Of a stretch of DNA of 64,000 bases, positions 4,320 through 57,976 are shown piece by piece (within the stretch, counting starts at the first letter, position 1; every line of letters starts with the position of its first letter). Where the stretch lies: positions 1,484,538 to 1,548,537 of the forward strand of contig WLWN01000001.1 of NCBI GenBank assembly GCA_012103575.1, written 5' to 3'. Source of the stretch: Kiritimatiellia bacterium. Lineage in GTDB: Bacteria > Verrucomicrobiota > Kiritimatiellia > WLWN01. The notes beneath the pieces are model-generated. The model saw nothing but the letters and a program-made list of their open reading frames with translations. It made no database searches and was not told the DNA's origin. A program made the position numbers and the translations under genes.

Positions 4320-7300
4320 AACGCTTTCCTTGAAGTTCATTGAGTAAATCGCGTTTAACATCTTCATCAGATAATGCGTCAATATCTCTATATACGGAAA
4401 CATCAAACAAATCCCCATCGAATAATTCGATCAACGCAATCTCCGTTTCTGTATCTATTTCTTCGGTTGGCTCCATCAGCCTATCCTGTGAGGGCACTGT
4501 TTGCTGATATAAGTCCTCCCAGGGGATGATCTCTAAAACGTGATCTGTTAATCGAGGCGCCGTTGGATAGTCGAACAATACTGTATCGGACAAGGTGGTC
4601 AGTCCGAACTGTCTGCGACAATCCTGTATCAGTTTTTCTGCTTGAATCGACTCCATGCCCATATTAAAAAATCCCGTTTCCAGATCAACGTCTTCGGTCG
4701 ATGCAAATCCTAAGAGCGCCTTGACTTGTTCTACGATCCATTCTTCTACTTCTTCTTTTCTATCCATGTCCGATAGATCGAGCAATGCTGCTACAAAAGT
4801 AGAGGTCTCTGACCTCGATGGAGGGGGGACCCTTTCAACCCCATTAGCCTGTTTAAGAAAAGAGGTGTCCTCTTTTGCCTGATCTGATACGGATATTATG
4901 GGGCCGGCAAGGGGGTTGCTTAGCCTGCCATTTTGACCCCCGCCTTCTTCTTTTTTGGCTTTGTTTTTCTCGACAATTTCTGTCATCCAATACCGTCTCT
5001 TCAAAAACGGATAGTTAGGCAGAGGCAAACATACACTCCCCCCATTATCTTCATATAGCCTTTCCCAGGGGATCAGCGTCCCCTGCACCCACAGCTGGGC
5101 TAATCGTTCCATCTTTCTTTTTTTCAGTAAGCTAGCCAAATAGTCCTGATCCTCTTTCACACCGTTCAACTTGAGCGCAGCTCCCACTTTTTCCGTATCC
5201 GCTTCATAATATTTCGTCTCTCGACCACCATTCCGGTCCTGATTGACATAGCCCTTCAATTGCTCGATCAAATCCGGTGTATCATTGACAACAAAGGCTA
5301 AACGATGGCGAAACAAGGCCCGTTTGGTTTGCAGGGTAAAGGCTAGATGCTGGATACTGGATACTGGACGCTGGATATTTGATTTTAAATACCCATGAAG
5401 ATTTCTGGCCAGTTCAAGCAGTTGGGACCGCACATGAGCCGAAAGCGGGATAACCACAGAAGATACCGCCCCGTCCATTGTTCGACCGTCTACCGGTTCA
5501 CCTTTCGACCTTTCACCTTTTTGACTTTTTGACTCATCGAGGTATTCCTCGATAATTACATGCACATTCACGCCACCGGCTCCAAAAGAACTGATTCCCG
5601 CACGTCGAGGCCATGCTTTCCCCTCTAGCCGAGGTTGTTCCCAAGTCGTCTTTTTTTCCTGAACATAAAAGGAAGAATTTTTGAAATCTATATTCGGATT
5701 CAACGGGCCATGTAATAAAGAAGGGACCAAAGTTTGGTGCTGCATTTGCAAAACCGTTTTTGTCAATTGCCCAATCCCGGCAGCCGCTTCCCCATGGCCG
5801 ATGTTCGATTTCACCGATCCGATCGCGCAGAATTGTTTTTTGTCTGTATGCTGTGTATAAACGTCCATAAGCCCTTGAATTTCGATCGGATCACCTAAAG
5901 CCGTCCCGGTTCCGTGCGCCTCAACATAGCTAATACTCTCAGGAGAAATACGGGCTTGGGCCAGCGCAGCTCCAATCGCTTTTGATTGAGATACAGGATT
6001 AGGTACTGTATAACTCTGAGTTTTGCCGTCATGGCTCACGCCCGTTCCTTTAATCACCGCTAAAATAGAATCCCCATCCGCTTTGGCCCGTTGATAAGGC
6101 TTCAACAATACCACCCCAACTCCTTCACTGGGAACATAGCCATCCCCATCAGCTGCAAACGCATGACAACGGCCATCACTGGAAGCAAAACCACCGGAGC
6201 AAAGGGTCGCATATTTACTCGGATGAAGCGTTAAATTAACGCCCCCCGCCAAGGCCAGACTACACGCTCCTCGCTTCAAGTTTTCACAGGCTTCATGAAT
6301 CGCAAATAAAGAGGAGGCACAGGCCGTATCCAGGGTAAAACTCGGTCCGGTGAAATTAAAAAAATAAGAAACCCGATTGGCAATCGAAAAGGTTTGTGAA
6401 TTCGCCGGATAACTGGGGCCAGGGCCAGCGGCCTCGGCCATCAACAATTGGTAATTATTAAAGGTGACACCGGCAAACACCCCGATGTTTCGGGCTTCCC
6501 TTTGCCAATGAGGATGGATAAAGCCGGCTGTTTCCAGACATCCCCAAGCCATTTCCAGGAAAAGCCGCTCCTGGGGATCCATAAAACGTGCGTCTTGAGG
6601 CGAAATATTAAAAAAGAGCGGGTCAAATTGATCCACCCCATCAAGAAACCCTCCCCATTTGCAATAGAGGGAATCCGTCCGGCCTTTTTCGGTATTAAAA
6701 TATGAACGATAATCAAATCTGTCTCGTGGAATCTCGGTAATACAATCCTTCCCCTGACTCAAATTATCCCAAAATGCCATCAGATCAGGGGCCTGTGGAT
6801 ATCGTCCACTCATCCCAATAATCGCGATATCCTCATTGGAAACCTGTTTTCCGGAGAACCTCGCGGAGAAACGCGCATGCCCAAAGGAGGTCAGATCCTT
6901 GGAGTGTTGTACCTTGACCTTGCCATTCAATGAGCGCGCACCTATTTTCCGGGGCTGCTCTGCGATCATCATATCTGCAGCATAAGCCTCGCTTAAAAAC
7001 TTCGCCAGAGAAGACAAGGTTTTGTATTTAAAAAAGAGGGTGGCATCTAATTTACCCAACCACTTTTCTACTTGTTGATTCAACGTCGTAATCATAATCG
7101 AATCTAAGCCCAATTCTTCCAGATCGGCTTCTACATTGATTTTTTCCTTGGGAATTTGTGTGATTTCAGTAACGATAGATGTCAACTTATTCAGCGCATA
7201 AGACCTTGCATCGACGTTGGAGAGCTCATTTTTTCCTTGGACTTCTTTATCCGTCTGATTACCGGCGCGGGCTTCTTGCTCTTGGGTGGAATCTTCGGTA

Positions 7301-10300
7301 AAGGGTTCCAGATATGTCTGCATTTCCATGGCCTTCATGCGCACACAAACATGGCCGAGATCATCGCATAGATCTATATCCAATTTCAGCGCCTGTTTCG
7401 ATGATGGGCTGCCCTGGCAGGATTGCACCCACGCCCACATCGACTCGGTACAACGATCAAGGATTTCAAGGCGTTCCAAGGAGGCTAAGAAGGGTTCTTG
7501 GTCTCCTCCTTCGCTCAAAGAGCTGCGAAAGACAGGCTTGGTTATTGGCTTGTCCTCCATAGCTTCCCCCTTCGCGCAGCGCGCGGCGGAGGAAAAGTCG
7601 GTGAACAAGTCAGCCGAGGAGGATTGTTGGTTAGCAAAGTTTAAGCCGATAGAGGCCTGAAGAGCCGAGTCCAACAGGCTGGGGTGCAGGGTGAACGGGT
7701 CCTTCGTATCTGCTATTGAGGAAGGCAGCGTCAGCTTGGCCAACACTTTATTCTCACCAACATAAAGTTTTTCGATCCCTTTATGAGCAGGCCCATACTC
7801 AATACCCATCCTTTTAAAGGCTGCATAGCACTCATCAGCGCTTAAAACACGTTGAGTACATGTTTCCTGTAGACCTTGGACATCGATGGGTTCAGCGGTT
7901 GGAGCCCCCTCAGAGGTCTCGACTCCACACACTTCCACCACCCCTTGACTATGTACAACTCTGGTATCCATGCCGTCGCGAAGCTGTTGTTGTGGAACCG
8001 TAGTTACGGAACCGTTGTCCTTCTCTAGCTCGCTATAGATTTCGTACTGAATCTCCCCATTCTCTTCGGGGAAGAGCCCAATATTCACCTGCCTGGGGTG
8101 GCCATTCACCGCAATCGGCATGGCCCAAACAACATTTTTAAGCTCAATTCTCTGAGGATCTTTGGCCCACTCTCCACAGGCTTGTTTGACGGCTTCTCGG
8201 GCCATTTCCAGATAAGCCGCGCCAGGGAGAACTTTTTCGCCTCTCACCTGGTGATCGGCAAAGAAAAACTCTTTGCCCGTAAAGGTTGAACTGAAACGCA
8301 GCTCGGATACGTCCGAGGTATTTTCATGCAACAACGGATGGAGTTCTTTCCCCGTTTCCGCATTCCGAACTCCGGACTCCGCATTTCCTTTGATCCAATA
8401 TCGTACCCTCGCAAACGGATAGGAGGGAAGACTGATGCGACGAAGTGGGGTATCGCCATACAACTTGTTCCAGTCAAGAATCAGACCCTTAACCCATAGA
8501 TCTAAGAGTTTGGAGTATTTCCCTTTACGAACCCACATATCAATGATTTTGGCCATGTCCTCATCGGCCGTGAAGACGTCCAATGTCTCTTTATTTCGTT
8601 TCACTTGGCCCAAATAAAGATCCTCCACATCTTCTTTACCATCCATAAAACGTTGGAGCTTTTCTTTAAGTTCTTCCATGGAATGAACTATCAAACCCAA
8701 CCGCTCTTCCATGGCTTCGCGACCGACCTGGAGGGTGTAGGCCACATCTTGAAGACATGGCGTCAAAGGTTGGAGATAATCAATAAGATGTTGGACATAG
8801 GCTTTGAGCCGGTCTTCATCTTTCGCCGACAGCACGATCAAATAGGGACCTTCTTTACTTTGTGACTTTGGACCTTCAACCTTTGACTCATCGAGGTATT
8901 CCTCGATGACCGCATGCGCATTCACCCCTCCCGCTCCAAACGAAGAGACTCCGGCAATCCGAGGGTATTCTTTTGTTTCCCCCTTGATCGTAAGGGTGGG
9001 TCGCTTCCAGTCCTCAAGTTGTTGTTGGACAATAAACGGCGTTTTGCTAAAATGAATGTTCGGATTCAATTCCATGGCATGCAGGCTGGGAGCAAGCTGC
9101 CCATACTTCATTTGGAGCACAATCTTAGTAAGCCCCGCAATCCCCGCCGCCGCTTCCAGGTGACCCACATTGGATTTTGCCGAACCCAACGCACAGAAGC
9201 CGGTATCCAACGTATCCTTTTGAAAAGCCTGTGTCAGTCCTGTCACTTCAATCGGATCGCCTAACTCCGTCCCGGTTCCATGCGCCTCCATATAACTAAC
9301 GCTCCGAGCGTCAATCCCGGCTTTTTCCAATGTCTCTCGAATCAGCGCACCCTGGGCTTTGGGGCTGGGAACCGTATAGCCATTGGTTTTACCACCATGA
9401 TTCACACTGGTTGCGCGGATCACAGCGTAAATGTGGTCCTGATCTTCAATCGCTTTCGATAATCTTTTCAGCAACACGACTCCAACACCTTCTCCAGGAA
9501 CAAACCCATTCCCCCCTTTCCCAAAACTTTTGCACTGTCCATCTTTCGAGAGCATCTGTTGTGCGCATAGCTCTATATACGTCGAAGGATGAAGATATAA
9601 ATTCACTCCACCCGCTATCGCCAATTCGCATGCTCCGTGGCGCAAGTGCTCACACGCTTCATGAATCGCGGTTAACGAGGAGGAACACATCGTATCAATC
9701 GGCATACTGGGGCCTTGTATATTCAGGAGATAGGAGACACGGTTGGCCACCGAACTGAATGATGTATGCGGAGAGATACCCCCCCTCTGTTTCTTCAGTT
9801 CAGGCCCATACAAATTAAACCCAGTTTTGGTAATGCCTGCAAAAACACCAACACGTTGGTTAAACTGTGTTGCGAGATGCTCTCTGGTGCAGCCCGCGTC
9901 TTCTAAGGCTTCCCAGCAGGACTGAAGAAACAGCCGTTCCTGCGGATCTATATTCATCGCTTCCCGGGGTGAAATATTAAAAAAGAGCGGATCAAAGTCC
10001 GCAAAGCCTTCCAAAAAACTCCCCCATTTGCTGTAACTCTTTCCTTGAGCCACTGCTTCCTGGGGATCCTCATGGAAAAAGCCATTCAACGACCAACGTT
10101 CCGGAGGAATCTCGGTAATACAGTCTTTGCCGGACTTTAAATGCTCCCAATATTCTTCTATCGTGTTGGCTTGGGGATAACGGCCGCTCATCCCGATAAT
10201 AGCCATCGGATCTTGAGTTCCGGTTCTGCTCATGCTCACGGAAAGTCCACGCCCGCAACCTTGCGTTGATTTTAGAGCCCTCAGAACGGGAAACTCTTCG

Positions 10301-13300
10301 GCTATAGACAGTACCGATCGATTCGGAAGCAGGTACGCTTGCTCTTGAAGACCCGCCCATTGAGCACAAGCTTGCGGATAATCAGCTATAAAATAGTCTG
10401 TTAATGCTTTTAATGTTTGATATTCAAAAAACAAGGTTTTGGAAATCTCTCCAAACACGCCTTCCAGTTTCTGATTCAGCTGCGTGATCAATATCGAGTC
10501 GATCCCATAACGCTCCAAGGGCTCTTCCGAATCGATTTTCGAGATAGATAGCTTGATCATTTCTCCAAACAGTTTTTTGAATTCATACAAGGTTTTTTCT
10601 TGCAAAAGGTGAGGGTCCATGGCCGGTACGGGTGATTCTTTGACAGGCACTACGGTTTGATCGGCAAGGAAAACGTTTCTTATCTTCTCTACATCCCCCT
10701 CCATGACCATCACTTGAGAGGTTCCCGAAGATAAGCCCTGATAAAACGCTTCGATCCCGGTGGATGTTTGCATCGCCACCATGCCCGTTCTCTCTGTGAT
10801 CATCTGCTCGGTGGCTTCATCCACGCTCATTCCCCCTTCTTTCCATAACGGCCAATTCATCGAAAGCGTTTGGCCGCTTCTCTCTGAGTCTATTCGAACA
10901 TTGCGATACCTGGCAAAAGTATCCATAAACGCATTGGCCGTGGCGTAGTCCGCTTGACCCACGTTGCCGATAGCTCCGGATACGGAGGAAAACAAAACAA
11001 AAAAGTCTAAAGACAGATCCTGCGTGGCTTCATCCAGATAAATGACTCCCTCCACCTTCGGCTTTAGCGTCTCTTCAAACTCTTCCCGGGGTTTCTTCAA
11101 AATAAAATTGTCCCGAATCAATCCCGCGCTATGAAGAATGCCATTGATTCCCCCAAAATCGTTTCGAGTCTCTTCAATGAGCCTTTCAACCGCTTGTTGA
11201 TCGGAAACATCCACAGTATGGTATTCAACGTTTGCTCCCAGGCTTTCTAATTCTTTGAGCTTTTCTTTGATCGGTTCGCTGAGCTCTGAACGACCCGTGA
11301 GGATCAGTCTTGCGCTTTTCGTTCTTTCCGCAATCTCTTTGGCAAAGATCAGGCCCAGTCCTCCAGCGCCACCGGTGATTAAATAGACACCTCCTTCTTT
11401 CCAGGGAATCTCTTTCTGAGCATGAGCCGTTGACCTTTCTTCAAAAACCTGCACTAGACGTTTGGTTCCTTCATAGCGAATACACTGATCTTCCGGACAT
11501 TTTACATTCTCTTGGAGTCTAGAGATGATTTCTTTGGGTGGTTCTTCTTCGCCCACTGCAATCACCTGACCCATGAGTTTAGGGTTTTCCAAATGAGCGG
11601 TCTTTAACAACCCTGAAACCCCTGAAAAAGTTTGTTCGAACCCTTCAGCGGGAACCAATACCTGGAGCAAAACAGGACCTTCAGGTTTGCCCTCCACTAT
11701 CTTCTGAGTGCGTTTAAACAGGTCCAAGGCAAACTCTTCAAAGCGTTTTCCAAGCCTTTTTTGATCCGGCTTCAGTTCTATAAAAGATCGTTCAGAGGCT
11801 CTATGACCTACGGATTCATTCCTTTGAGTTAAACCGCACAAGAACACTTGATGGTCCGCATATTCGGGGATGTTTTGCTTTGGATCAACCGCTCTTTCTC
11901 GCCAAACCGGCTGGAACATCAAAGTCCCTGTCGTTTCCGATTTTTCTAAGACTCCTTCCGGGGTTTGGGAAAAGAAATCTCTCAGCTTCACACACACCTT
12001 CCCATTCTCATCACACAGATCAATGTCCAACTTCTGGACACGGGCCGTTGTTCCGCTGCTACCGGAACGGTGTACATGAGCCCACATTTTTTCTGAGCAG
12101 TAATCTATGATTTCAAGGCGGTTCAAGGAGGCTAAGAAGGGTTCTTGGTTTCCTTCTTTGCTCAAAGAGCTGCGAAGGACAGGCTTGGTTGTTGGGTTGT
12201 CCTCCATAGCTTTCTCCTCCGCCAAGCCTTTAGTGAACAAGTCAGCGGAGGCAGATTTTTGGTTCGTAAAGCCTGAGCCGATAGCAGCTTGAAGAGCTGA
12301 ATCCAAAAGGCTGGGATGAAGGGTGAATTGGTCTTTGGTCTCCAACACGCAAGAAGGGATCTTTAATTGGGCCAACACTTCATCATCGCCAACATAGAGT
12401 TTTTCTATTCCTTGGTGAGCGGGACCATATTCAATGCCTATTTTTTTAAAGACCGTATAGCATTCCTCGGCGCTTAAAACACGTTGAGTACACGTTTCCT
12501 GAAGGGCTTTCAGATCGAGCTTAGGGTGTTGGTCCGCTGAGGCGAACACCGCCACCCCTTGACTGTGCACGACGATTTCATCTTTTGAACTTTTTTCGTG
12601 TTTCGAATCTCGAAGTTCGAATTTCCCATCCACCGGAGGGGCCGTGTAGATTTCATAGGCGATTTCTCCATTATCTTCAGGGTAAAGCCCAATATGGACA
12701 TCCTGAGGTTGATCGTCCACAGCAAACGGCCACGCCCACACCACATTTTTGAGCTCTATTATTTGATTCTCTTTAGGAAATTCTCCAGAAGCCTGCTCTA
12801 CTGCCGCGCGCGCCATCTCCAGGTAAGCGACTCCAGGTAAAACCTTTTCTCCCTTTACCTGATGATCTTCCAAAAAGAACTCCTTACCGGTAAACATAGA
12901 GCTGAATCGCTGCTCTTCCAATGTCGAGGTATTCTCATGAACGAACGGATGCAGCCTCTTACTGACCATATCTTCGGCCATGCCGTTGGCTTGGCAAACT
13001 TGGTAAGCCTCTGACTTCTGTCTTCTGCCCTCTGTCCGTTCTACCCAATATCGCTCTCTTTCAAAGGGGTACGTAGGAAGGGATACCCTGTAACTAATTT
13101 TTGGATTGGCAAGGTTCGACCAATTCACCTTATAGCCCTGAACAAAAGCTTCTGCTAGTGTGAATAAATCTTTGTGATAGTTCGACTCATCTTTTGTCCG
13201 TTTATTTTCAAGTTTCGCTAAAATTTGATCACATTTTTCTTTGGTCTCTGTTGAGGCTTTAGAAGACCTTGAACTATACATGACTGAGTCCCGGCATGTT

Positions 13301-14904
13301 TTTCCCGTTAAAATACGCAGAATTTTGTTTCGCAAATCTTGTGCATCTTTTACAACGCAAGCAAAACGATACTTAAAATGCTTGCGCCCGACCTGCAAGG
13401 TATAAGCGATATCACGAATTGAAGGCTGTTCTCCAACCGCTTCGAACCAATCTGATAAATCATTGATTTTTTGGTTAAGAGACCCTTCTGTTTTAGCGGA
13501 TAGAGGGATTAAATAACATGGTGCCTTTTCTTTTCCCTCACGCCTCCCCTGTTCCGGAGCTTCCTCCAAGATTAAAAAAGAATTGGTTCCGCCTATACCT
13601 AAAGAATTTATACACGCTCGCCTGGGGCTTTGGTCTTTCACGGTCCATGGTTTAAGCTTTGTGTTTACATAAAAAGGTGTTTCGTTAAAATCAATCTTAG
13701 GGTTGGCCGTCTTATAGTTTATACAAGGGACTAAGGTTTTGTGTTTTAGACACATCGCTGTTTTTATCAAACTAGCAACTCCCGCTGCGATATCTAGATG
13801 ACCTATATTGTTTTTAACAGAACCCAACGCACAATAGTCCCCTTTATGCGTGGCAGGAGAATCAAACATGCGTGTTAAGGCTGTCACTTCCACCGGATCG
13901 CCCATAGCGGTGCCTGTACCATGCGCCTCAACATAATTCACGGTCTTGGGAGAAACCTTGGCCTTCTCAAAGGCTTTGCGCATACAACGCACTTGTCCGG
14001 TAGCCGTTGTGGCCATGTAGCTCATCTTCTGGCCACCGTCATTATTGAAAGCAGACCCTTTGATCACTGCATAGATTTGGTCATGATCCCTCATGGCCTG
14101 TTCCAGGGGCTTTAACAAAACTAACCCTAAGCCACTCCCAAAAACGATCCCTTGGGCATCGGCGTCAAACGCACGAACGTGACCATCATGGGAGAAGATG
14201 CTGTCTTTCTTTAAAGCATAGCCCACTCGATGGGGGATTCGGATATTCACGCCTCCGGCCAAGGCCATATCGCATTCCTGATGCAGAATACTTTGACACG
14301 CCAGATGAACCGCCACCAAAGAGGTCGAACAGGCCGTCTGCACGTTGATGCTTGGGCCTTTGATGTTCAATTTATAAGAAACCCTTGTACTGACAAAATC
14401 TTTATCATTGCCCAGGTGCTCTATGCCGCCTGTTGCACCACGGATCGTGGAATCATATCTCAGGCATTCCAGCAAATAATTGCTCACAGCTCCACCCGAA
14501 CCGCTAAAGACTCCAACCATAGGCACCAGCTTCTCTGGCACATAACCGGCATCCTCGAACGTGGCCCACGCACATTCGAGTAACAAGCGTTGTTGAGGAT
14601 CTAGTACTTTGGCTTCAACTGGAGGTATATTAAAAAAAGAGGCATCAAACTTGTCTATATCATCTAAAACAGGAGCGGCCTTAATGTAATGGGCCGCTTG
14701 GATAAAAGATTCTTCTACACCGGCTTCTCTCAACTCTTCATCTCTAAAAAAGGTAATGCTTTCTTTACCTTCTTTAAGGTTTTCAAAAAATTCAGGAATG
14801 GATGAGGCGCCGGGAAAGCGTCCGCTCATCCCAATGATGGCAATATCTTCACTCAGGACCTCTTTTTTCTTCTTTAGCATGTGCATCCACATCTTATCAC
14901 TCAA
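4312..14904 (-). CDS. trans-AT type polyketide synthase, 3530 aa: KS-DH-KR-ACP-KS-DH-ACP-KS-ACP, no integrated AT domains
   Basis: Three KS domains with active-site Cys ('TACSTS', 'MCSSSL', 'TACASS') plus 'EAHGTGT' and 'N(I/V)GH' motifs. Each KS is followed by a post-KS linker ('LSAKTEGSL...AYTLQVGRKHF', 'LPxYPFxRxRYW') with no AT. DH motif 'HxxxGxxxxP' appears twice ('DHQVKGEKVLPGVAYLEMA'). KR Rossmann 'ITGGAGGLGLIFAKEIA'. ACP serines 'GIDSI', 'GLDSI', 'GMESI'. Start ATG overlaps the ACP gene stop (ATGA). Confidence 0.9.
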   Translation of the reverse strand: MSDKMWMHMLKKKKEVLSEDIAIIGMSGRFPGASSIPEFFENLKEGKESITFFRDEELREAGVEESFIQAAHYIKAAPVLDDIDKFDASFFNIPPVEAKVLDPQQRLLLECAWATFEDAGYVPEKLVPMVGVFSGSGGAVSNYLLECLRYDSTIRGATGGIEHLGNDKDFVSTRVSYKLNIKGPSINVQTACSTSLVAVHLACQSILHQECDMALAGGVNIRIPHRVGYALKKDSIFSHDGHVRAFDADAQGIVFGSGLGLVLLKPLEQAMRDHDQIYAVIKGSAFNNDGGQKMSYMATTATGQVRCMRKAFEKAKVSPKTVNYVEAHGTGTAMGDPVEVTALTRMFDSPATHKGDYCALGSVKNNIGHLDIAAGVASLIKTAMCLKHKTLVPCINYKTANPKIDFNETPFYVNTKLKPWTVKDQSPRRACINSLGIGGTNSFLILEEAPEQGRREGKEKAPCYLIPLSAKTEGSLNQKINDLSDWFEAVGEQPSIRDIAYTLQVGRKHFKYRFACVVKDAQDLRNKILRILTGKTCRDSVMYSSRSSKASTETKEKCDQILAKLENKRTKDESNYHKDLFTLAEAFVQGYKVNWSNLANPKISYRVSLPTYPFERERYWVERTEGRRQKSEAYQVCQANGMAEDMVSKRLHPFVHENTSTLEEQRFSSMFTGKEFFLEDHQVKGEKVLPGVAYLEMARAAVEQASGEFPKENQIIELKNVVWAWPFAVDDQPQDVHIGLYPEDNGEIAYEIYTAPPVDGKFELRDSKHEKSSKDEIVVHSQGVAVFASADQHPKLDLKALQETCTQRVLSAEECYTVFKKIGIEYGPAHQGIEKLYVGDDEVLAQLKIPSCVLETKDQFTLHPSLLDSALQAAIGSGFTNQKSASADLFTKGLAEEKAMEDNPTTKPVLRSSLSKEGNQEPFLASLNRLEIIDYCSEKMWAHVHRSGSSGTTARVQKLDIDLCDENGKVCVKLRDFFSQTPEGVLEKSETTGTLMFQPVWRERAVDPKQNIPEYADHQVFLCGLTQRNESVGHRASERSFIELKPDQKRLGKRFEEFALDLFKRTQKIVEGKPEGPVLLQVLVPAEGFEQTFSGVSGLLKTAHLENPKLMGQVIAVGEEEPPKEIISRLQENVKCPEDQCIRYEGTKRLVQVFEERSTAHAQKEIPWKEGGVYLITGGAGGLGLIFAKEIAERTKSARLILTGRSELSEPIKEKLKELESLGANVEYHTVDVSDQQAVERLIEETRNDFGGINGILHSAGLIRDNFILKKPREEFEETLKPKVEGVIYLDEATQDLSLDFFVLFSSVSGAIGNVGQADYATANAFMDTFARYRNVRIDSERSGQTLSMNWPLWKEGGMSVDEATEQMITERTGMVAMQTSTGIEAFYQGLSSGTSQVMVMEGDVEKIRNVFLADQTVVPVKESPVPAMDPHLLQEKTLYEFKKLFGEMIKLSISKIDSEEPLERYGIDSILITQLNQKLEGVFGEISKTLFFEYQTLKALTDYFIADYPQACAQWAGLQEQAYLLPNRSVLSIAEEFPVLRALKSTQGCGRGLSVSMSRTGTQDPMAIIGMSGRYPQANTIEEYWEHLKSGKDCITEIPPERWSLNGFFHEDPQEAVAQGKSYSKWGSFLEGFADFDPLFFNISPREAMNIDPQERLFLQSCWEALEDAGCTREHLATQFNQRVGVFAGITKTGFNLYGPELKKQRGGISPHTSFSSVANRVSYLLNIQGPSMPIDTMCSSSLTAIHEACEHLRHGACELAIAGGVNLYLHPSTYIELCAQQMLSKDGQCKSFGKGGNGFVPGEGVGVVLLKRLSKAIEDQDHIYAVIRATSVNHGGKTNGYTVPSPKAQGALIRETLEKAGIDARSVSYMEAHGTGTELGDPIEVTGLTQAFQKDTLDTGFCALGSAKSNVGHLEAAAGIAGLTKIVLQMKYGQLAPSLHAMELNPNIHFSKTPFIVQQQLEDWKRPTLTIKGETKEYPRIAGVSSFGAGGVNAHAVIEEYLDESKVEGPKSQSKEGPYLIVLSAKDEDRLKAYVQHLIDYLQPLTPCLQDVAYTLQVGREAMEERLGLIVHSMEELKEKLQRFMDGKEDVEDLYLGQVKRNKETLDVFTADEDMAKIIDMWVRKGKYSKLLDLWVKGLILDWNKLYGDTPLRRISLPSYPFARVRYWIKGNAESGVRNAETGKELHPLLHENTSDVSELRFSSTFTGKEFFFADHQVRGEKVLPGAAYLEMAREAVKQACGEWAKDPQRIELKNVVWAMPIAVNGHPRQVNIGLFPEENGEIQYEIYSELEKDNGSVTTVPQQQLRDGMDTRVVHSQGVVEVCGVETSEGAPTAEPIDVQGLQETCTQRVLSADECYAAFKRMGIEYGPAHKGIEKLYVGENKVLAKLTLPSSIADTKDPFTLHPSLLDSALQASIGLNFANQQSSSADLFTDFSSAARCAKGEAMEDKPITKPVFRSSLSEGGDQEPFLASLERLEILDRCTESMWAWVQSCQGSPSSKQALKLDIDLCDDLGHVCVRMKAMEMQTYLEPFTEDSTQEQEARAGNQTDKEVQGKNELSNVDARSYALNKLTSIVTEITQIPKEKINVEADLEELGLDSIMITTLNQQVEKWLGKLDATLFFKYKTLSSLAKFLSEAYAADMMIAEQPRKIGARSLNGKVKVQHSKDLTSFGHARFSARFSGKQVSNEDIAIIGMSGRYPQAPDLMAFWDNLSQGKDCITEIPRDRFDYRSYFNTEKGRTDSLYCKWGGFLDGVDQFDPLFFNISPQDARFMDPQERLFLEMAWGCLETAGFIHPHWQREARNIGVFAGVTFNNYQLLMAEAAGPGPSYPANSQTFSIANRVSYFFNFTGPSFTLDTACASSLFAIHEACENLKRGACSLALAGGVNLTLHPSKYATLCSGGFASSDGRCHAFAADGDGYVPSEGVGVVLLKPYQRAKADGDSILAVIKGTGVSHDGKTQSYTVPNPVSQSKAIGAALAQARISPESISYVEAHGTGTALGDPIEIQGLMDVYTQHTDKKQFCAIGSVKSNIGHGEAAAGIGQLTKTVLQMQHQTLVPSLLHGPLNPNIDFKNSSFYVQEKKTTWEQPRLEGKAWPRRAGISSFGAGGVNVHVIIEEYLDESKSQKGERSKGEPVDGRTMDGAVSSVVIPLSAHVRSQLLELARNLHGYLKSNIQRPVSSIQHLAFTLQTKRALFRHRLAFVVNDTPDLIEQLKGYVNQDRNGGRETKYYEADTEKVGAALKLNGVKEDQDYLASLLKKRKMERLAQLWVQGTLIPWERLYEDNGGSVCLPLPNYPFLKRRYWMTEIVEKNKAKKEEGGGQNGRLSNPLAGPIISVSDQAKEDTSFLKQANGVERVPPPSRSETSTFVAALLDLSDMDRKEEVEEWIVEQVKALLGFASTEDVDLETGFFNMGMESIQAEKLIQDCRRQFGLTTLSDTVLFDYPTAPRLTDHVLEIIPWEDLYQQTVPSQDRLMEPTEEIDTETEIALIELFDGDLFDVSVYRDIDALSDEDVKRDLLNELQGKRYD

Positions 14905-17400: not shown

Positions 17401-17922
17401 TCATGCTGGTTGTGGCTCTTTTTTCGAGGAACTGACTACCTCTTCACTTTTTTTTACAGCTTCATCAAATTCTTTTTTTGCTTTCTTTTTGCAAAAACTT
17501 AATAAGGTTCCGCCTGATTCAAAGTGCTTGATAAAGACCCGACCCACCGCATAGGTAGACGCGCCGGAAAAAATCGGCATGGTCACTGCTCCTATCGTCG
17601 GCCCAACGAGGGGGATCATTTTGATCAAACCCGCCGCTGGCCTGGACAACGTCGATGGAAAAAGTCCGCCCAGTAGAGAACCGATAATATTTTTCGCTGT
17701 ATTTCTGAAAAATTTCACTTCGTAAACCTTGCAGATTCTTCGCAGCATATTGAGCTGGAACCCGGTTACGGCTACTAGATCAACTACCGGAATTGGCACC
17801 AATCCAACGCCAGTCGTCCACAAAATCGTATTCTTTACGATATTATCCGCCTCAAGTTTCTTGGCATTCACCTCTTGATTTTCGCTTTTTTCCACTTCTT
17901 CTACTGTTGGCTTTTTAGGCAT
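17401..17922 (-). CDS. Hypothetical membrane protein, DUF697/YcjF-like
   Basis: 173 aa with hydrophobic core 'GVGLVPIPVVDLVAVTGFQLNMLRRI', Lys-rich N- and C-termini. Family assignment is from memory of the DUF697 pattern. Confidence 0.45.
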   Translation of the reverse strand: MPKKPTVEEVEKSENQEVNAKKLEADNIVKNTILWTTGVGLVPIPVVDLVAVTGFQLNMLRRICKVYEVKFFRNTAKNIIGSLLGGLFPSTLSRPAAGLIKMIPLVGPTIGAVTMPIFSGASTYAVGRVFIKHFESGGTLLSFCKKKAKKEFDEAVKKSEEVVSSSKKEPQPA

Positions 17923-18078
17923 GGTGACCCTCCTTTTCTGATGTTAATATTACCTTCTTATCCTGCTTATTCCATTCGCAGATTCCTCAAATTTGTTTAG
18001 AGACTTATATCATGATTGAAACCGTATCAATCAAAAAATGATTTTTTGTTGGCCCTTCTCGGAAAGCATCCCGTTTAA

Positions 18079-20199: not shown

Positions 20200-20362
20200 C
20201 CTGGATCTGTCAGTTAAACGTGGGATTTCTGTGCGAATGCTTTGGAGGCAAAAGGTTGCAAAAAAACGCAGGCGCACCCGCTGGGTGCGTCGAGGCTTTT
20301 TTGTAATTCCTTTTGGCCCAAATGGTTCGTGCAGAAAACCGCGTTTAACTGACGGATCCAGG
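20200..20362 (+). mobile_element. MITE copy 1 (163 bp, ~45-bp imperfect terminal inverted repeats CCTGGATC(T/C)GTCAGTTAAACG..., 5-bp target-site duplication ATGGT)
   Basis: Left end 'cctggatctgtcagttaaacgtggg...', right end '...ccgcgtttaactgacggatccagg'. Flanked by ATGGT on both sides. >97% identical to copies at 53952 and 57816. Internal hairpin 'gcgcacccgctgggtgcg' bracketed by an A7 tract and a T6 tract. Sits 18 bp upstream of the LysM gene start, between murD and ftsW. Confidence 0.85.
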
Positions 20363-37420: not shown

Positions 37421-38627
37421 TTGATTAGAAAGACGAACCAAAAAAAGGAGAAAAAGATGAAAAGAAAAGAGATGATTATAGCTGGGTTCATATCATGGAT
37501 AATCAGTGTTCCTTTTGCCTATGAGCAATTCACTAATTTTAATTCAGGCAGTACGGGCTCAGATGGAGCGCTGAATGTTACGGTAAACACAAATATTGAT
37601 TTACCTCCAGATGGTATATTCCACTTTACAACCATCAATATTGCTCAAAATGTTACAGTTACCTTCAATCGAAATACCTTAAATACCCCCGTTTATCTAT
37701 TAGCACAGGGCGACATTACCATTGATGGAGATATTGATGTATCAGGACAAAATTCACCCCCTGGTGGAGTTGGCGCAGGGGGTCCGGGAGTTTGATGGGG
37801 GGATGTTAGGGTTTTTGAACACCCTGCCAGGTGCTGGGCAGGGATCTGGTGGTGGTCTTGGAGGTGCGTGTGTTTCTTCGGGTACAAACACCGTTGGCGC
37901 TGGGTCATACCAAAGTGTTCCCACCTCTTCTTTTCAAGACGGTAGAGATGGAAGTATATACGGGAGTCCTTTACTGGTTCCCTTGGTGGGAGGATCTGGA
38001 GGAGGGGGGTCAACGGGCACACCTGGGCTTGGAGGTGGAGGTGGTGGCGACGCTATTCTGTTAGCTTCGAATACAAGAATTGAGTTCACTAGTGCGAATA
38101 TATATGCGAAAGGAGCACAAGCAGTAGGTTGTTCTTATAACGAAGGAAGTGGTGGTGCCATATGTTTAGTTGCCCCGATTGTTACAGGAACTGCAGGATG
38201 TCATGCTAATGGGTATAGCACGCGGGCAGGGAATGGGTATATACGTGTTGACGCCATTGATCGTAGTGGAATGAGCGGAATAACATTTAATCCTACACCG
38301 AGTGTGGGAAGCTTTATGGCCGTATTTCAAAATCCTCTCCCTCGTTTAGATGTTATTGAAGCCGCTGGGCAAACAATTCCGGAGGGAGCCAGTACAGCTT
38401 ATCATGTCCATTTACCCTCTGGTTCGCCAAGTAATCAGACTGTTTTGGTTCAAGCAAAAGATTTTTCCGGGACAAATCTACCCATACGGGTTACATTAAC
38501 GCCTGAAAGTGGAGATCCTCTTTCTTATGATGCCGATATTGATATAACTGGGGGTACGGCGACCGGAACGGTTAATGCTGTGTTCCCTGTCAACATCCTC
38601 ACGCATGTACACGCATGGACCAGGTAA
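37421..38627 (+). pseudogene. Secreted Gly-rich surface protein, beta-helix-like by composition, split by a frameshift at a G5 tract
   Basis: Signal peptide 'MKRKEMIIAGFISWIISVPFA' and 'ITIDGDIDVSG' repeats. The first frame ends '...GGVGAGGPGV*' at 37795. The second frame runs from 'ELAQGVREFDGGMLGFLNTLPGAGQGSGGG' to 38627. Removing one G from 'caGGGGGtcc' (37778-37782) fuses them into one ORF of about 402 aa. Confidence 0.55.
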
Positions 38628-38949
38628 CCGATTGAGGATTTCAGATTTCGGATTAGCCGATTGTGGATTGCGGGAAAACAAGAGAATGGATTTAGAGTTA
38701 CCATGTAAGAAGACTAGGAGTAAAGTCCTCCCTTGGGGCATTCATGAAGATGTCCTGGGGATCGTTAACCAAAACTATCGGATCGAGGTTGTGGTCTAGC
38801 AGTGATCGAAAAAATTCCAGGTAACAGTTCGTGTTCTCAAAAATTTAAAGTGGGGGGCGGAGCCGCCTCCCACTTTAGAAAAATGATTACGGGGTAATGA
38901 ATAAACCTCTCGGTTAGCCGCTCAATCCCTAAGCTGTAGTCCAAGCTAT

Positions 38950-39213
38950 TTGGACGTCTATTATCGAAAAATGAAAGCCCGCTTAGGCGCCCCTAAAGCG
39001 ATTACCGCTACAGCTCACAAATTGGCTCGGATTTTCTATAAAATATGGAATGAAAGTCAAGATTTTGACCCTACTCTTTTTGAGCAGCTCAAACAGAAAG
39101 CTCGTACGCGAACTGAAACCTATGTTCGAAAAAAGGCTTATGACTTAGGGTTTGAGTTAATCCTGAATCCGTCAGCTATCGCTTCGGAAGGCGTTTTGGG
39201 GCTCAAAAGTTGA
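38950..39213 (+). mobile_element. IS110-family transposase, C-terminal fragment only
   Basis: 'YRKMKARLGAPKAITATAHKLARIFYKIW' matches the conserved C-terminus of IS110/IS1111 transposases. The roughly 300 upstream residues are absent. A strong hairpin 'AAAGTGGGGGGCGGAGCCGCCTCCCACTTT' lies at 38851-38880. Confidence 0.6.
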
Positions 39214-39378
39214 AAACTTTTTCCTTGAGATGCTCGCTTTTGGGCGGATTGGGACCGGCAAGTATCACCCTGATGAATTTTTTGAGCGTACAGGTCAGAC
39301 TCACTCTGATTTGGCCATTTTGGGGCGTAGGCCTCCTTGGGCAGTCGCCTTAGAGTATTGTTAAAGGTGCACGGAGGG

Positions 39379-40820
39379 CTATGCGAAGGAATGGGCAATA
39401 TCTTGTATCACTTCAAACCAGCGATAACGCTTGCCAAAGTGAAGTTCAATTCGTCCGGCGTGGCGGACCAATCGAACCGCGCAATAAACGATATTTTTGA
39501 GAACCGTTTTGATTCGCCAGCACGGGATGTTGATTTTCTGCGGGGCAAGCCCAGCCCGTTTGATGACCTCTTGGCCAAGACCGCGCAATAGGTTGAAGGC
39601 CACCATGGCGCATAACAGAATAATCTTATTGGCACAGGGTCTCCCCGAAGGCAATCGCTCAACATCAAGATCGCTTTTGAGTTCACTGTGGTACTGCTCG
39701 CTGGGGCCATGTCCATGATAGAGATCTAGCACCGTCTTGGCACGACAAGAGAGGTTCGTCCACCAGGTGTTCACCTCAAGTTTAGGAACCAGAAGTTTCT
39801 GACCATCGATATCGATGGTGCGTTCAATCACTTCGAAGGCCACCGGGACACAAGGGCGGTTTTGGTCACCACCGGGATGGAAATGATCGAAAAAGCCTGT
39901 GTAAACGTTCTTGCCTTCACGACTGTCTTGTTTGTCTCCAACTCGGCGTGCAAGGGCCAGCATTTGTTCAGGACATTCGCGGCGAGGATTTCGCTTTACG
40001 ATAAAATAATGATCCCCAAAAGCGTCGAAGTTATCGGCCGCAGCGTTGCCACTATCAAGCCGAAGCAAACATTTTCCACCTAGGCCCAGGGTTTGGAGCG
40101 TTTCAACGCTGCGGGCAATAAACGCGGTCGTTCCCGACTGACAATGTTGTTTACCGGGTCGAAGTTCGCACTCAAGCATGTGGCCTTGAGTGCCCACATA
40201 GGCAAATATCGGGGCGTAACCATCATGGCCCTTCTAGGTGTAGGAAACGCCTTCTTTCGAAGAGCCTGAGTGATCCAAAGGGCTCACATCGATATCGACG
40301 GGAACAAGATCAAGCCCTTCGACATCTACCTAGCCAAAGGGGCCCAAGGAAAGAAGTTCGGTGTTGAGTTTGCGTAGCCCCACATGGGTTCTGGCTGGGG
40401 GCAGGTCGTCGAAACGACGTCGGAACACCGGCTCAGAGGCTACCCTTTTTAACTCCCCTTTTTAAGTCCAAAGGCATTCATAAAAATCTCATCACCCCGG
40501 TACAGGTCGATATCATTGAAATCGGTTCGACCGTTGCAAAGTAAGCCGATCTGGGTAAGGAGGATCTCCCGATCAGAGATCGCATCGGAGCGGCGTGGTT
40601 GAAAATTGGAGGGAAGAATCCGTTGAGCATGATCCTCAAGCAGCAGGCCGCAAAGATGATTTCCGCTTGTGCTGTTGAGTTCGCCCTTGCCAGTCTTTAT
40701 TTTATATTGTTTCATATACACACCTGTTGGGGTGGGGTTGTTTGTTTGAATACGGGTATGCTCCCCGCTTTAGCCCAACAGGTAATGAAAAATTATCAGA
40801 TTTTATCTGACGGATTCAGG
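39379..40820 (-). mobile_element. Degraded IS1380-family insertion sequence; transposase broken into at least three pieces
   Basis: 272-aa ORF 39379-40197 ('RLDSGNAAADNFDAFGDHYFIVKR', 'DLYHGHGPSEQYHSELKSD...ANKIILLCAMVAFNLLRGLG') resembles the ISEcp1-type DDE transposase middle and C-terminus. In-frame TAG at 40234-40236. N-terminal fragment ORF 40449-40721 ('LCNGRTDFNDIDLYRGDEIFMNAFGL'). Terminal IR 'CCTGAATCCGTCAGATAAAA' reads inward from 40820 and matches the MITE terminus CCTGGATCCGTCAG. Confidence 0.7.
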
Positions 40821-40984
40821 TTAATCACTAAACTGGCTGTTCCCTAAAAAGGTTTCTTAGGAGGATAAAGCTCTAACGCACCTCACACCGCTACTACCAA
40901 CGCTTGTAAACACCTAAAATTCAGTTTCACATTTCATGGATAAATAGATATGTTATCGCTCGCAAATGCGTATAGTTTAGTGAA

Positions 40985-42412
40985 ATGAATTTTAAAGATT
41001 ATGAAGTCGGAAATTTTTATGATGAGATGTTTGAGTCTAATCAAACGGCACGCACGTGCGCTCAACTTCTGACGAAGAAAATTGAATCATTACCGCCGGG
41101 CGAACTTAAACGACGGCAAGCCGCCGCAGAACGTTCTCTATACAGCATGGGCATTACGTTTAATGTATATGGAGAAGAAGCAGAGCGGGAAAAAATATGG
41201 CCTTTTGATGTCATACCCCACGTCATTGAATCCACTGAGTGGAATCGGATTGAAAAAGGTTTGAAACAAAGGATACAAACTTTAAACCTTTTCCTTGATG
41301 ATGTTTATAACGATCAAAAAATAATAAAGGACAAGGTTATTCCAGAAGAGATCATCCGATCCTCTTCAGGTTTTCTAGAAGCATGCATCGGTCTAAAACC
41401 GCCCCACGGAATCTGGCCGCATATTACTGGAACAGACTTAATTCGGGATCAAGAGGGTCAACTGTATGTGCTAGAAGACAATATGCGCGTTCCATCGGGA
41501 GTCTCCTATGTACTCGCCAATCGCAATCTGATGAAGCGTACGTTTCCAGAAGTGTTCAACACCTTAAACGTGAAACGTATTAATGATTATCCAACTCACT
41601 TACTTGACATGCTATCCGGTATCGCCCCACCCCATCATGATAATCCACAAGTGGCTCTTTTAACACCCGGCATCCACAACTCCGCCTATTTCGAACACAC
41701 GTTTTTAGCACAGCAGATAGGAGCTGAACTCGTAGAAGGCCGTGATCTTGTAGTTTCGGATGGGTATGTATCTATGCGTACAACACACGGACTCCAACGT
41801 GTGGATATGATTTATCGTCGTATTGATGATTTATTTTTAGATCCTAACGTGTTCCACAAACATTCAACATTAGGCGCGGCCGGATTAATGGACGCCTACC
41901 GAGCAGGCCGTGTAGCCATCGCCAATGCCCCTGGAACAGGTGTTGCTGATGATAAAGTCATATATGCGTTTGTTCCTCAAATGATTAAGTATTATCTCGA
42001 TCAAGAATCGCTTATACCCAATGTCCCAACGTATATATGTGCCGATGAAAAGAGCTTGGCATATACCCTTTCGAATTTAGATACACTGGTCGTTAAACCC
42101 GCTAGCGAAGCAGGAGGGTATGGGATGTTAGTAGGGCCCCCTTCTTCGAAAAAAGAACAAGAAAAGTTCGCGGATAAAATTAAAAAGAATCCTCGAAATT
42201 ATATTGCCCAACCCACGATCGCGCTTTCCCGAGCCCCTGTTATTGTCGACGATCATTTTGAAGGTCGTCATGTGGATCTCCGACCTTTGATTCTGTACGG
42301 AAAAGATATTTATGTCCTGCCGGGGGGACTAACCCGAGTCGCTTTACCCAAAGATTCACTCGTTGTAAACTCTTCGCAAGGGGGAGGCAGCAAAGATACA
42401 TGGGTGGTGTGA
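40985..42412 (+). CDS. Circularly permuted ATP-grasp type 2 protein (Anbu-operon gene 1)
   Basis: 475 aa. The family-typical gene order with alpha-E, Anbu and transglutaminase follows. Confidence 0.85.
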
Positions 42413-48010: not shown

Positions 48011-49038
48011 ATGGTAACGCAAAATTCATCAGATTCCCTGTGGGCAAACCGATCCGACGAAGAACTGCTCAAGATACGAATATGCGATTTTAACCTTGAG
48101 ATTGAAGGATCCGAACTAGCGCCCCGTATCGACAAATTATATAAAGAACTTGAATCAAAAGGGATCTTTTTCAAACCTACCTGTTACCTGACAACGGAAT
48201 GGTTATGCCCAGATAAGATCCCCATGATTGGTATTCCATTTTGCCTGGCCCATCCACGATTAAAACAACTCGAAAGAAATATGATGCTTGAAGTTGAGGG
48301 GGGAACCGAAACAACCTGCATCCAACTTTTGCGCCATGAAATGGGCCACGCTATAAACTATGCATATCGACTCTATCGGCGTACACGTTGGCGGGAATTA
48401 TTTGGCCCTTTTTCAACTGAATACAATGAACATAACTATTACTCAAGGCCGTATAGCAAACAGTATGTCCTTCATTTACCCGATAACTATGCCCAAGCTC
48501 ATCCCGATGAAGATTTTGCCGAAACGTTTTCTGTATGGCTTACACCGAATCTTGATTGGCAAAAAAATATAAAGGATGGGGCGCGATAAAAAAGCTAGAA
48601 TACGTCAACCATCTCATGAAACAGATAGGTTCAACATCACCTCTGGTCACCCGAGGACAGAAATTATGGGCTATTCATCGACTACGATCCACACTGGCTA
48701 CCTATTATAAAAAGAAACGAGAGGAATTTGCCGAAACCTACGCAGGGTACTATGATCCCGATCTACTCAAAATATTCGCCCCTGAACCTAAAGAAACACA
48801 CGTAAAGGCTGACCGTTTTCTCCGCCAGCACCAACGTATTCTCACCGATACCGTTGCCCAATGGGCGCATGCAAGAAAATATGCTATTGACCATTTAGTA
48901 CGTCGCTTAGCAAACCGATCCAAAGAACTATCGCTCTACATTAAAGGGGAAGAGAAAGAGACGCTTCTACACATTGGCGTTTATTTAACAACCTTAATAT
49001 GTGAACAAAGAGATGTGAAAGCTCAACACAATCCATAG
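48011..49038 (+). pseudogene. Putative zinc-binding metallopeptidase (HExxH), frameshifted at an A7 tract
   Basis: 'LLRHEMGHAINYAY' zinc motif. First frame ends '...DWQKNIKDGAR*'. Downstream ORF 48556-49038 continues in the +1 frame. An A8 in place of the A7 at 48561-48567 would fuse them ('DWQKKYKGWGAIKK...'). Confidence 0.6.
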
Positions 49039-53951: not shown

Positions 53952-54114
53952 CCTGGATCCGTAAGTTAAACGTAGGATTTCTGTGCGAATGCTTTGGAGG
54001 CAAAAGGTTGCAAAAAAACGCAGGCGCACCCGCTGGGTGCGTCGAGGCTTTTTTGTAATTCCTTTTGGCCCAAATGGTTCGTGCAGAACACCGCGTTTAA
54101 CTGACGGATCCAGG
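53952..54114 (+). mobile_element. MITE copy 2 (TSD TAAAA)
   Basis: Same 163-bp element, flanked by TAAAA on both sides. Lies between convergent glnE and menE. Confidence 0.85.
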
Positions 54115-57668: not shown

Positions 57669-57815
57669 TAACGGTATTTGGCGATCGAATGTCCTCGACT
57701 TTTCCGAAAGTTGATGTACATTTTTATCATGTTAAAAATTTTAACCCATATAGCGTGTCTTATTAACAGGGTTATTAACAGAAAAAGCAAGAAGAGTCCG
57801 TTGAAGACTTCTTCT

Positions 57816-57976
57816 TGGATCCGTCAGTTAAACGTGGGATTTCTGTGCAAATGCTTTGGAGGCAAAAGGTTGCAAAAAAACGCAGGCGCACCCGCTGGGT
57901 GCGTCGAGGCTTTTTTGTAATTCCTTTTGACCCAAATGGTTCGTGCAGAAAACCGCGTTTAACTGACGGATCCAGG
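57816..57976 (+). mobile_element. MITE copy 3 (TSD TTCTT)
   Basis: Same element with the left terminus mutated to CTTGGATCC. Flanked by TTCTT on both sides. Sits in the divergent menA/exonuclease promoter region. Confidence 0.85.

Follow-up and report, generated by a model that had tools for sequence, protein, structure and literature searches.

What kind of element lies around positions 39379-40820 of this stretch of DNA, and can it account for the three 163-bp MITEs (miniature transposable elements with inverted repeats) that occur elsewhere in the same 64-kb window, by which we mean the whole stretch that was analyzed? The original prediction described a one-ended, degraded remnant of an IS1380-family insertion sequence (IS) whose terminal repeat matched that of the MITEs, and proposed that the MITEs are derived from IS1380 and are mobilized in trans by an intact family member elsewhere in the genome. 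We find instead a complete IS1380-family IS with two perfect ends and a dead transposase gene, and a MITE family that was likely mobilized in trans by this IS lineage's transposase. The IS is delimited by the following features:

39162-40820, minus strand: complete insertion sequence of the IS1380 family, 1,659 bp long; its transposase is encoded on the minus strand and its 14-bp inverted ends are perfect.
39162-39175, plus strand: transposase-distal terminal inverted repeat, CCTGAATCCGTCAG, a perfect 14-bp inverted copy.
40807-40820, minus strand: transposase-proximal terminal inverted repeat, CCTGAATCCGTCAG, then ATAAAA inward; 17/20 positions agree with the MITE end.
39157-39161, no strand: left copy of the target-site duplication TTAAT, read directly in the sequence.
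40821-40825, no strand: right copy of the target-site duplication TTAAT, likewise read directly.

The outer end at 40820 reads CCTGAATCCGTCAGATAAAA inward, exactly as had been described. The opposite end had been considered unrecognizable near 39.3 kb, but is plainly present as a perfect inverted copy at 39162-39175, and the element is therefore complete from 39162 to 40820 rather than one-ended. This second end was overlooked because a chance reading frame (38950-39213) spans it, and position 39379, given as the start of the element, is only the end of the transposase stop codon. The terminal motif CCTGRATCCGTCAG, allowing up to one mismatch, occurs eight times in the window, compared to 0.01 occurrences expected by chance, and every one of these is an element end: six lie on the three MITEs and two on the IS1380 element. 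The transposase-distal end, continued by CTATCG, is found in six other copies of the IS, two of which carry a G at position 5, and other copies from the same organism are ~98% identical to 39162-40820.

Members of the IS1380 family are 1.55-2.0 kb long and make duplications of 4-5 bp. The length of the window element falls within this range and almost equals the 1,658 bp of its intact relatives, however the single reading frame typical of the family is broken. The element is thus an IS1380 member by descent, but non-autonomous. At 50.4%, its G+C content exceeds the 44.9% of the window, as would fit a lineage of foreign origin that arrived relatively recently. A search of 37500-41500 against Rfam gave nothing meaningful, and a reading of the region as a structured RNA was rejected on this basis.

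The sequence on either side of the duplicated pentamer indicates what the IS landed in:

38905-39161, plus strand: relic of a transposase tentatively assigned to the IS110 family, C-terminal part only, 5'-truncated and split by the IS1380 insertion (NF033542; translation).
40826-40847, plus strand: last seven codons and stop of the same relic, read from the sequence.

When the IS and one TTAAT are conceptually removed, the IS110-like frame reads through the junction from GFELI to TKLAVP and ends with a stop at 40847, so that the IS must have inserted into the 3' end of an IS110-type relic. What survives of the relic is its last ~90 codons, from about 38905. It matches only positions 309-342 of the 343 in NF033542, with 26.9 bits against a cut-off of 140, and a Pfam search returned no match for it; we therefore regard the family assignment as tentative. 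An IS110 fragment had earlier been placed at 38950-39213; that frame runs 52 bp into the IS1380 end, and the true relic occupies ~38905-39161 and then 40826-40847. In the light of these boundaries, the terms "remnant" and "nested insertions and deletions" were too strong, as the locus can be explained by a single clean event, in which a complete IS inserted into an IS110 relic that is older and 5'-truncated. Just outside the relic, the strong hairpin previously noted at 38851-38880 is real (-27.7 kcal/mol, z = -4.9). It has a 16-bp stem, with a run of A before it and a minus-strand run of T after it, and looks like a terminator for minus-strand transcription; a consensus terminator scan did not include it among its matches. 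We could not tie this hairpin to either the IS1380 element or the IS110 relic.

We next consider the transposase gene, which is split as follows:

40449-40715, minus strand: N-terminal piece, 88 codons from ATG to a TAA created by the frameshift (NF033539 positions 2-84; 80% by tblastn).
40444-40457, minus strand: 14-bp near-tandem, frameshifting insertion, in transposase sense GGACTTAAAAAG[GGGAGTTAAAAAGG]GTAGCC (alignment of the window copy with copies L059 and L081).
40330-40332, minus strand: first in-frame TAG; TAC (Tyr) in copy L081.
40234-40236, minus strand: second in-frame TAG; common to L081, and Tyr in P0143, P0144, P0113 and P0229.
39379-40233, minus strand: C-terminal piece with the DDE region and the natural stop at 39381-39379 (NF033539 positions 168-418; PF13701).

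Both transposase pieces of the original prediction, 40721-40449 and 40197-39379 on the minus strand, are borne out by profile matches. The N-terminal piece matches positions 2-84 of the NCBIfam model NF033539 ("IS1380 family transposase") with E = 3.8e-08 and 32.4 bits, and the 272-codon frame 40197-39379 matches positions 168-418 with E = 2.7e-50 and 171.2 bits. The unrepaired transposase also matches Pfam PF13701 with 52.7 bits (cut-off 34.7). In a tblastn comparison with the intact relative P0001, residues 1-84 were 80% identical and residues 84-440 were 76% identical. Three-frame translation together with tblastn indicates that a single frameshift near 40444-40457 and two in-frame TAG codons split the pieces, the second TAG being the stop noted earlier at 40234 (40236-40234). 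When the insertion is removed and both TAG codons are read as Tyr, the repaired 440-residue transposase scores 283.8 bits against NF033539, well over the cut-off of 180, and covers positions 2-418 of the 419 in the model. The sequence across the frameshift site is GGACTTAAAAAGGGGAGTTAAAAAGGTAGCC. The insertion is 13 bp long in L059 and L081 (GGACTTAAAAAG[GGGAGTTAAAAAG]GTAGCC) and 14 bp in the window, which has an extra G that could be a homopolymer error; intact relatives read GL(T/K)xVASEP here, without the insertion. With a frameshift and two nonsense codons, the window copy can no longer make a transposase.

Two other explanations for these defects were rejected. TAG is an ordinary stop codon in this genome rather than a reassigned one, as it closes 7 of the 34 long reading frames in the window. 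An assembly error is not the source either, because the insertion and one of the TAG codons recur in independent contigs from other loci. More generally, independent short-read contigs agree with the window at 99.99-100% identity, over stretches of up to 11.7 kb. These contigs begin inside the IS end and cover only its outermost 154 bp, because short-read assemblies break at repeats, and wherever the contigs of a sponge specimen extend to the window site, the insertion is found there.

Protein fragments 97-99% identical to the window transposase lie on one 3,096,896-bp contig labeled "MAG: Kiritimatiellae bacterium" (locus tags GKR87_), and the neighboring genes of the window and the MITE ends recur in the metagenome assemblies WLWD-WLWI, JAAHTG and JAAHTH and in samples SAMN12718692 and SAMN12718693. 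These records come from two studies of the sponge Mycale hentscheli (PMC7157528, PMC7196800), and we infer that the complete Kiritimatiellaeota genome of those studies is that of "Candidatus Patea custodiens". One of the two papers does not mention transposases and the other names a single transposase gene in the legend of a gene-cluster figure; insertion sequences and MITEs are discussed in neither.

The IS is highly amplified in this organism. The same 3.1-Mb genome encodes at least 162 fragments of IS1380 proteins, which fall into one cluster of 16 and one of 146, and the absence of any other IS1380 transposase, which would have spoken against the original prediction, is thus not what we observe. 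Truncated and internally deleted copies of the IS also occur in the organism's contigs. The second TAG is common to the window and L081, which are two different loci. Such shared defects at different loci suggest that coding-defective copies were propagated or homogenized: a nonsense codon shared by two loci is what mobilization in trans predicts, although recombination between copies could produce this pattern too.

The genome has also accumulated other transposon debris. A second, older IS1380 relic is present in the same organism (L093, also L094 and L095), with ~80% nucleotide and 74% protein identity (P0173, GKR87_06995) and with no recognizable ends, so that the genome has seen at least two generations of the family. 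Fragments of an IS630/Tc1-like transposase are found as well (L080 6394-6660; protein P0127). One protein of 551 residues, annotated as "IS1380 family transposase", is an IS1380 C-terminus fused in frame to an IS630-like fragment, which points to insertion of one IS into another.

The nearest intact proteins, 440-441 residues long and 76-77% identical, are encoded on metagenomic contigs of 1.7-2.2 kb. The nearest intact relatives are elements of 1,658 bp that end on both sides in CCTGAATCCGTTAGATAA / CCTGAATCCGTTAG. Even distant relatives from Lachnospiraceae genomes, with only 37-39% protein identity, still end in CCTGAATCCGTGAA, and one of these, L010, is flanked by the 5-bp duplication TAAAT. 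Since the start of the terminus is conserved at both 76% and 37-39% protein identity, we take CCTGAATCCGT to be the terminal signature of this branch of the IS1380 family. Twenty plasmid records match the transposase with 32-41% identity and are annotated as IS1380 family, one of them as ISAzo40-like, and a plasmid search at the DNA level gave no match. The earlier description of the transposase as ISEcp1-type finds no support beyond the family level, as none of the 15 plasmid matches listed (E <= 1e-5) is named ISEcp1.

The three MITEs of the window are as follows:

20200-20362, no strand: MITE, 163 bp, intergenic; target-site duplication ATGGT; full-length hairpin.
53952-54114, no strand: MITE, 163 bp, intergenic; target-site duplication TAAAA.
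57814-57976, no strand: MITE, 163 bp, intergenic; target-site duplication TTCTT.

Their termini, CCTGGATCCGTCAGTTAAACG, and their number and length agree with the earlier description, and the three are 97.5-98% identical to each other. The MITE terminus reads CCTGGATCCGTCAG. We scanned metagenome contigs for this terminus and recovered at least 37 loci (316 kb), all from sponge assemblies, which contain at least 32 further paired copies of 163-164 bp at distinct sites. Perfect 5-bp duplications flank 26 of these 32, and 29 of the 35 when the window is included, with most of the others one mismatch off or 6 bp long; the mean pairwise identity of the 35 copies is 96.1%. The copies are mostly intergenic. 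The element is short and non-coding, with ends identical for 21 bp, and as a whole it is ~75% self-complementary; the copy at 20200-20362 folds into a full-length hairpin (-60.5 kcal/mol, z = -13). Its appearance is that of one arm folded back on itself, and not that of an IS that has lost its centre.

The copies are often paired, 200-900 bp apart or less (L076 4264-4426/4614-4776; L065 457-619/1283-1445; L082 5695-5857/6404-6566), perhaps because the element hops locally or prefers AT-rich intergenic targets. Copies of the MITE also decay by deletion, as solo or truncated ends at L063:4059, L064:12324, L074:312 and L080:3579 retain 19-100 bp. That such solo ends might be the ends of a longer parent element was rejected, because each is either part of a truncated MITE or located at the end of a contig. 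Weak empty-site evidence comes from window 17918-18037, an 80%-identical paralogue of L076 4480-4830 that is uninterrupted where L076 carries a MITE. The two paralogous upstream regions also have a conserved leader, ending in AAAAGGAG...ATG.

What then links the MITEs to the IS? The MITE terminus agrees with the end of the window IS at 13/14 positions, and at 17/20 with the transposase-proximal end. The mismatch at position 5 corresponds to variation within both families, since the IS copies at L061:6052 and L089:132 carry the G variant and match the MITE at 14/14, and one MITE copy carries the A variant. Both elements are flanked by 5-bp duplications (TTAAT at the IS), in agreement with the earlier claim that both make duplications of 4-5 bp. 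Their targets are similarly biased, with an A+T content in the flanking pentamers of 84% at the MITEs and 82-94% at IS ends, compared to a background of 56%. Finally, the copies have diverged to a similar extent, with ~96% pairwise identity among MITEs and ~98% among IS copies. The link between IS and MITE is thus well supported by independent lines of evidence, namely the identity of the termini, the length of the duplications, the bias in targets, the signature of the clade and the co-amplification of the two elements.

We therefore propose that an IS1380-family IS became highly amplified in this Kiritimatiellae sponge symbiont, and that one copy, now at 39162-40820, transposed into the AT-rich pentamer TTAAT in the 3' end of an older IS110 relic and duplicated the pentamer. 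As both ends of this copy are intact and its transposase is dead, it is now itself non-autonomous. The ~14-20-bp terminal sequence shared with the MITE is what an IS1380-type transposase would be expected to bind and cut, and with ends recognized by this transposase the MITE could have been mobilized in trans by the IS lineage, which would account for the identical duplication length of 5 bp and the similar AT-rich targets. Action in trans on an end that matches at 13/14 positions is plausible, because the ISEcp1 and ISPme1 transposases act on imperfect end-like sequences according to reviews (PMC9330008). The MITE thus very probably spread with the same enzyme as the IS, which in turn implies that a working source of transposase existed or still exists. 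As a joint account of the coding-dead IS in its IS110 relic and of MITEs moved in trans by the IS-lineage transposase, we consider this explanation likely to be correct. Of the proposal that the MITE is IS1380-derived and mobilized in trans, the IS1380-type ends and the IS-like behavior hold; an origin by internal deletion does not follow, with only ~20 bp in common. Beyond these ~20 terminal bp the match between MITE and IS is at chance level, so that descent of the MITE from the resident IS by deletion is not demonstrated.

Several observations weigh against this explanation. The interior of the MITE and its subterminal TTAAACG are absent from the IS. We found no empty site for a MITE at the same locus, only the paralogous one at 80% identity. 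No intact transposase gene of the IS lineage was found. The frameshifting insertion occurs in 3/3 DNA copies that span its position, namely those of the window, L059 and L081, and the longest IS1380 frame among ~30 fragments listed of at least 162 has 304 residues, compared to the 440 expected. Two protein searches of cluster representatives returned no full-length protein more than 77% identical, and a search with the N-terminal half found no fragment from the organism that spans the frameshift region, only the older 74%-identical relic P0173. The "intact family member elsewhere" of the original prediction was thus not encountered among three DNA copies and ~30 fragments listed of the 162 or more, and on this limited sample it is doubtful that the present-day genome holds an intact helper.

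These observations raise the question of whether the link between IS and MITE is purely historical, such that the IS copies and MITEs are now immobile fossils of a past burst, with no functional transposase left. Here we find the evidence evenly balanced. In addition to the frameshift common to all three DNA copies and the shortness of the IS1380 frames among the fragments listed, the copies have diverged by 2-4%, truncated and internally deleted copies of both IS and MITE occur, and the window insertion is present in every sponge specimen with contigs reaching the site. However, the DNA sequence across the frameshift site was seen for only 3 copies, out of a total that probably exceeds 100, and only ~30 of at least 162 protein fragments were listed. 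An extinct burst is also compatible with movement of the MITE in trans by the IS lineage, as it concerns the present and not the mechanism.

A different possibility is that the MITE belongs to a second, unsampled IS1380 element with CCTGGATCCGTCAGTTAAACG ends, and that the resident IS is only a cousin. MITE positions 15-21 (TTAAACG) do differ from both IS ends, position 5 is G in 86/87 MITE ends compared to 2/15 IS ends, and L093 shows that the genome has at least one further IS1380 lineage, an older one with ~80% nucleotide identity. We nevertheless think a second element quite unlikely, because the MITE-type ends in the ~380 kb of DNA sampled from the organism are all those of MITEs, whole or truncated, L093 has no recognizable ends, and intact relatives from other organisms match the MITE terminus at only 12/14 positions, which is worse than the resident IS.

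The frameshift shared by the three copies might also not be a defect at all. The transposase could be produced by recoding at AAAAAG runs, or as an 88-residue OrfA plus an OrfB that starts from the ATG in ATGAATGCC, and a functional frameshift of this kind would explain how insertion-carrying copies multiplied. The two parts have a short overlap with two AAAAAG motifs, and the 13-bp version of the insertion provides an in-frame ATG for the downstream part, in addition to the occurrence of the insertion in all the copies examined. However, the 13-bp version would need a +1 shift, without a known slippery context, and the A runs are only 5 long. The transcriptional slippage known from IS elements requires longer runs than this. 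Furthermore, IS1380 members, including all the intact relatives found here, have a single reading frame, and many copies carry further nonsense codons, so we consider functional recoding improbable. A more far-reaching proposal is that a master already bearing the 13-bp insertion gave rise to all copies of the IS, which probably number more than 100. The family would then have spread by a recoded or two-polypeptide transposase, or by a single source since lost that drove defective IS copies and MITEs alike, and it would be the first described IS1380-MITE pair; we regard this combination as unlikely.

That the termini resemble each other by coincidence or convergence, and that the MITE comes from another IS family, can be dismissed as scarcely credible: only 14-20 bp are in common, but the motif occurs only at element ends (eight times against the 0.01 expected in the window), is kept across IS1380 relatives down to 37% protein identity and is accompanied by equal duplication length and target bias, and the other transposase types seen are IS110 and IS630-like, neither of which is known to have such terminal repeats together with 5-bp duplications. 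Typical terminal inverted repeats are missing from IS110 elements, and the target duplicated by IS630 is TA.

Three further features of the window and its neighborhood are recorded here. The sole difference in 11.7 kb between the window and contig L046 is a run of A7 at 48561-48567 (within 48011-49038) that is A8 in L046, and it splits a Peptidase_Mx gene, of 342 residues in L046, into frames of 192 and 160 residues; either the closed assembly has a homopolymer error here or the frameshift is a genuine variant. A segment of ~95 bp (window 38765-38860), downstream of a Gly-rich 301-residue frame, recurs three times elsewhere in the organism, ~2.5 kb apart and with 79-86% identity (L065 7656-7697, 10336-10430 and 12686-12727; L057 6350-6391, 9030-9124 and 11380-11421), and may be an intergenic or 3' segment of a paralogous gene series. 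The minus strand of 4312-14904 contains a reading frame of 3,530 residues.

The analysis allows the repeat families of this sponge-symbiont genome to be correctly annotated as one IS1380 lineage and a 163-bp miniature partner, and these repeats explain where short-read assemblies of the organism break. IS1380 joins the families with a plausible MITE partner; a full-text search of the literature, which was not exhaustive, found no published MITE for this family. The many diverged copies with shared defects also provide a natural data set on how defective elements spread in a host-restricted bacterium. No general concept is changed: an IS and MITE pair in an IS-swamped symbiont is a known kind of system, only mildly unusual in having IS1380 as the partner family and a frameshifting insertion that is apparently family-wide.

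Compared with the known members of the IS1380 family (ISEcp1, ISPme1, ISAzo40 and IS1380), the window IS is similar in its DDE transposase, which once repaired matches the equivalog model end to end, in its length of ~1.66 kb, in its short terminal repeats beginning with CC and in its 5-bp duplication. It differs from the named members in that it is only 32-41% identical to the plasmid-borne ones and its gene is a pseudogene, and its closest intact relatives (76-77%) are unnamed metagenomic elements from Verrucomicrobiota-like organisms. The MITE resembles the partners in bacterial MITE-IS pairs such as RUP/IS630-Spn1, TIMEs/Tn3 and MITEAba12, which are likewise small and non-coding with ends shared with an IS, and which also have a duplication of fixed length, many mostly intergenic copies and a long hairpin. 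In contrast to those pairs, the partner here is IS1380 and the MITE is a near-perfect one-arm foldback. The genome as a whole recalls the IS expansions with decayed copies in host-restricted symbionts, such as the anglerfish symbionts (PMC6020299) and the Azolla cyanobiont (PMC4369082), with one IS lineage represented by at least 162 fragments, most or all copies pseudogenized, and IS inserted in IS; the host lineage in this case is instead a member of the Kiritimatiellae living in the sponge Mycale hentscheli.

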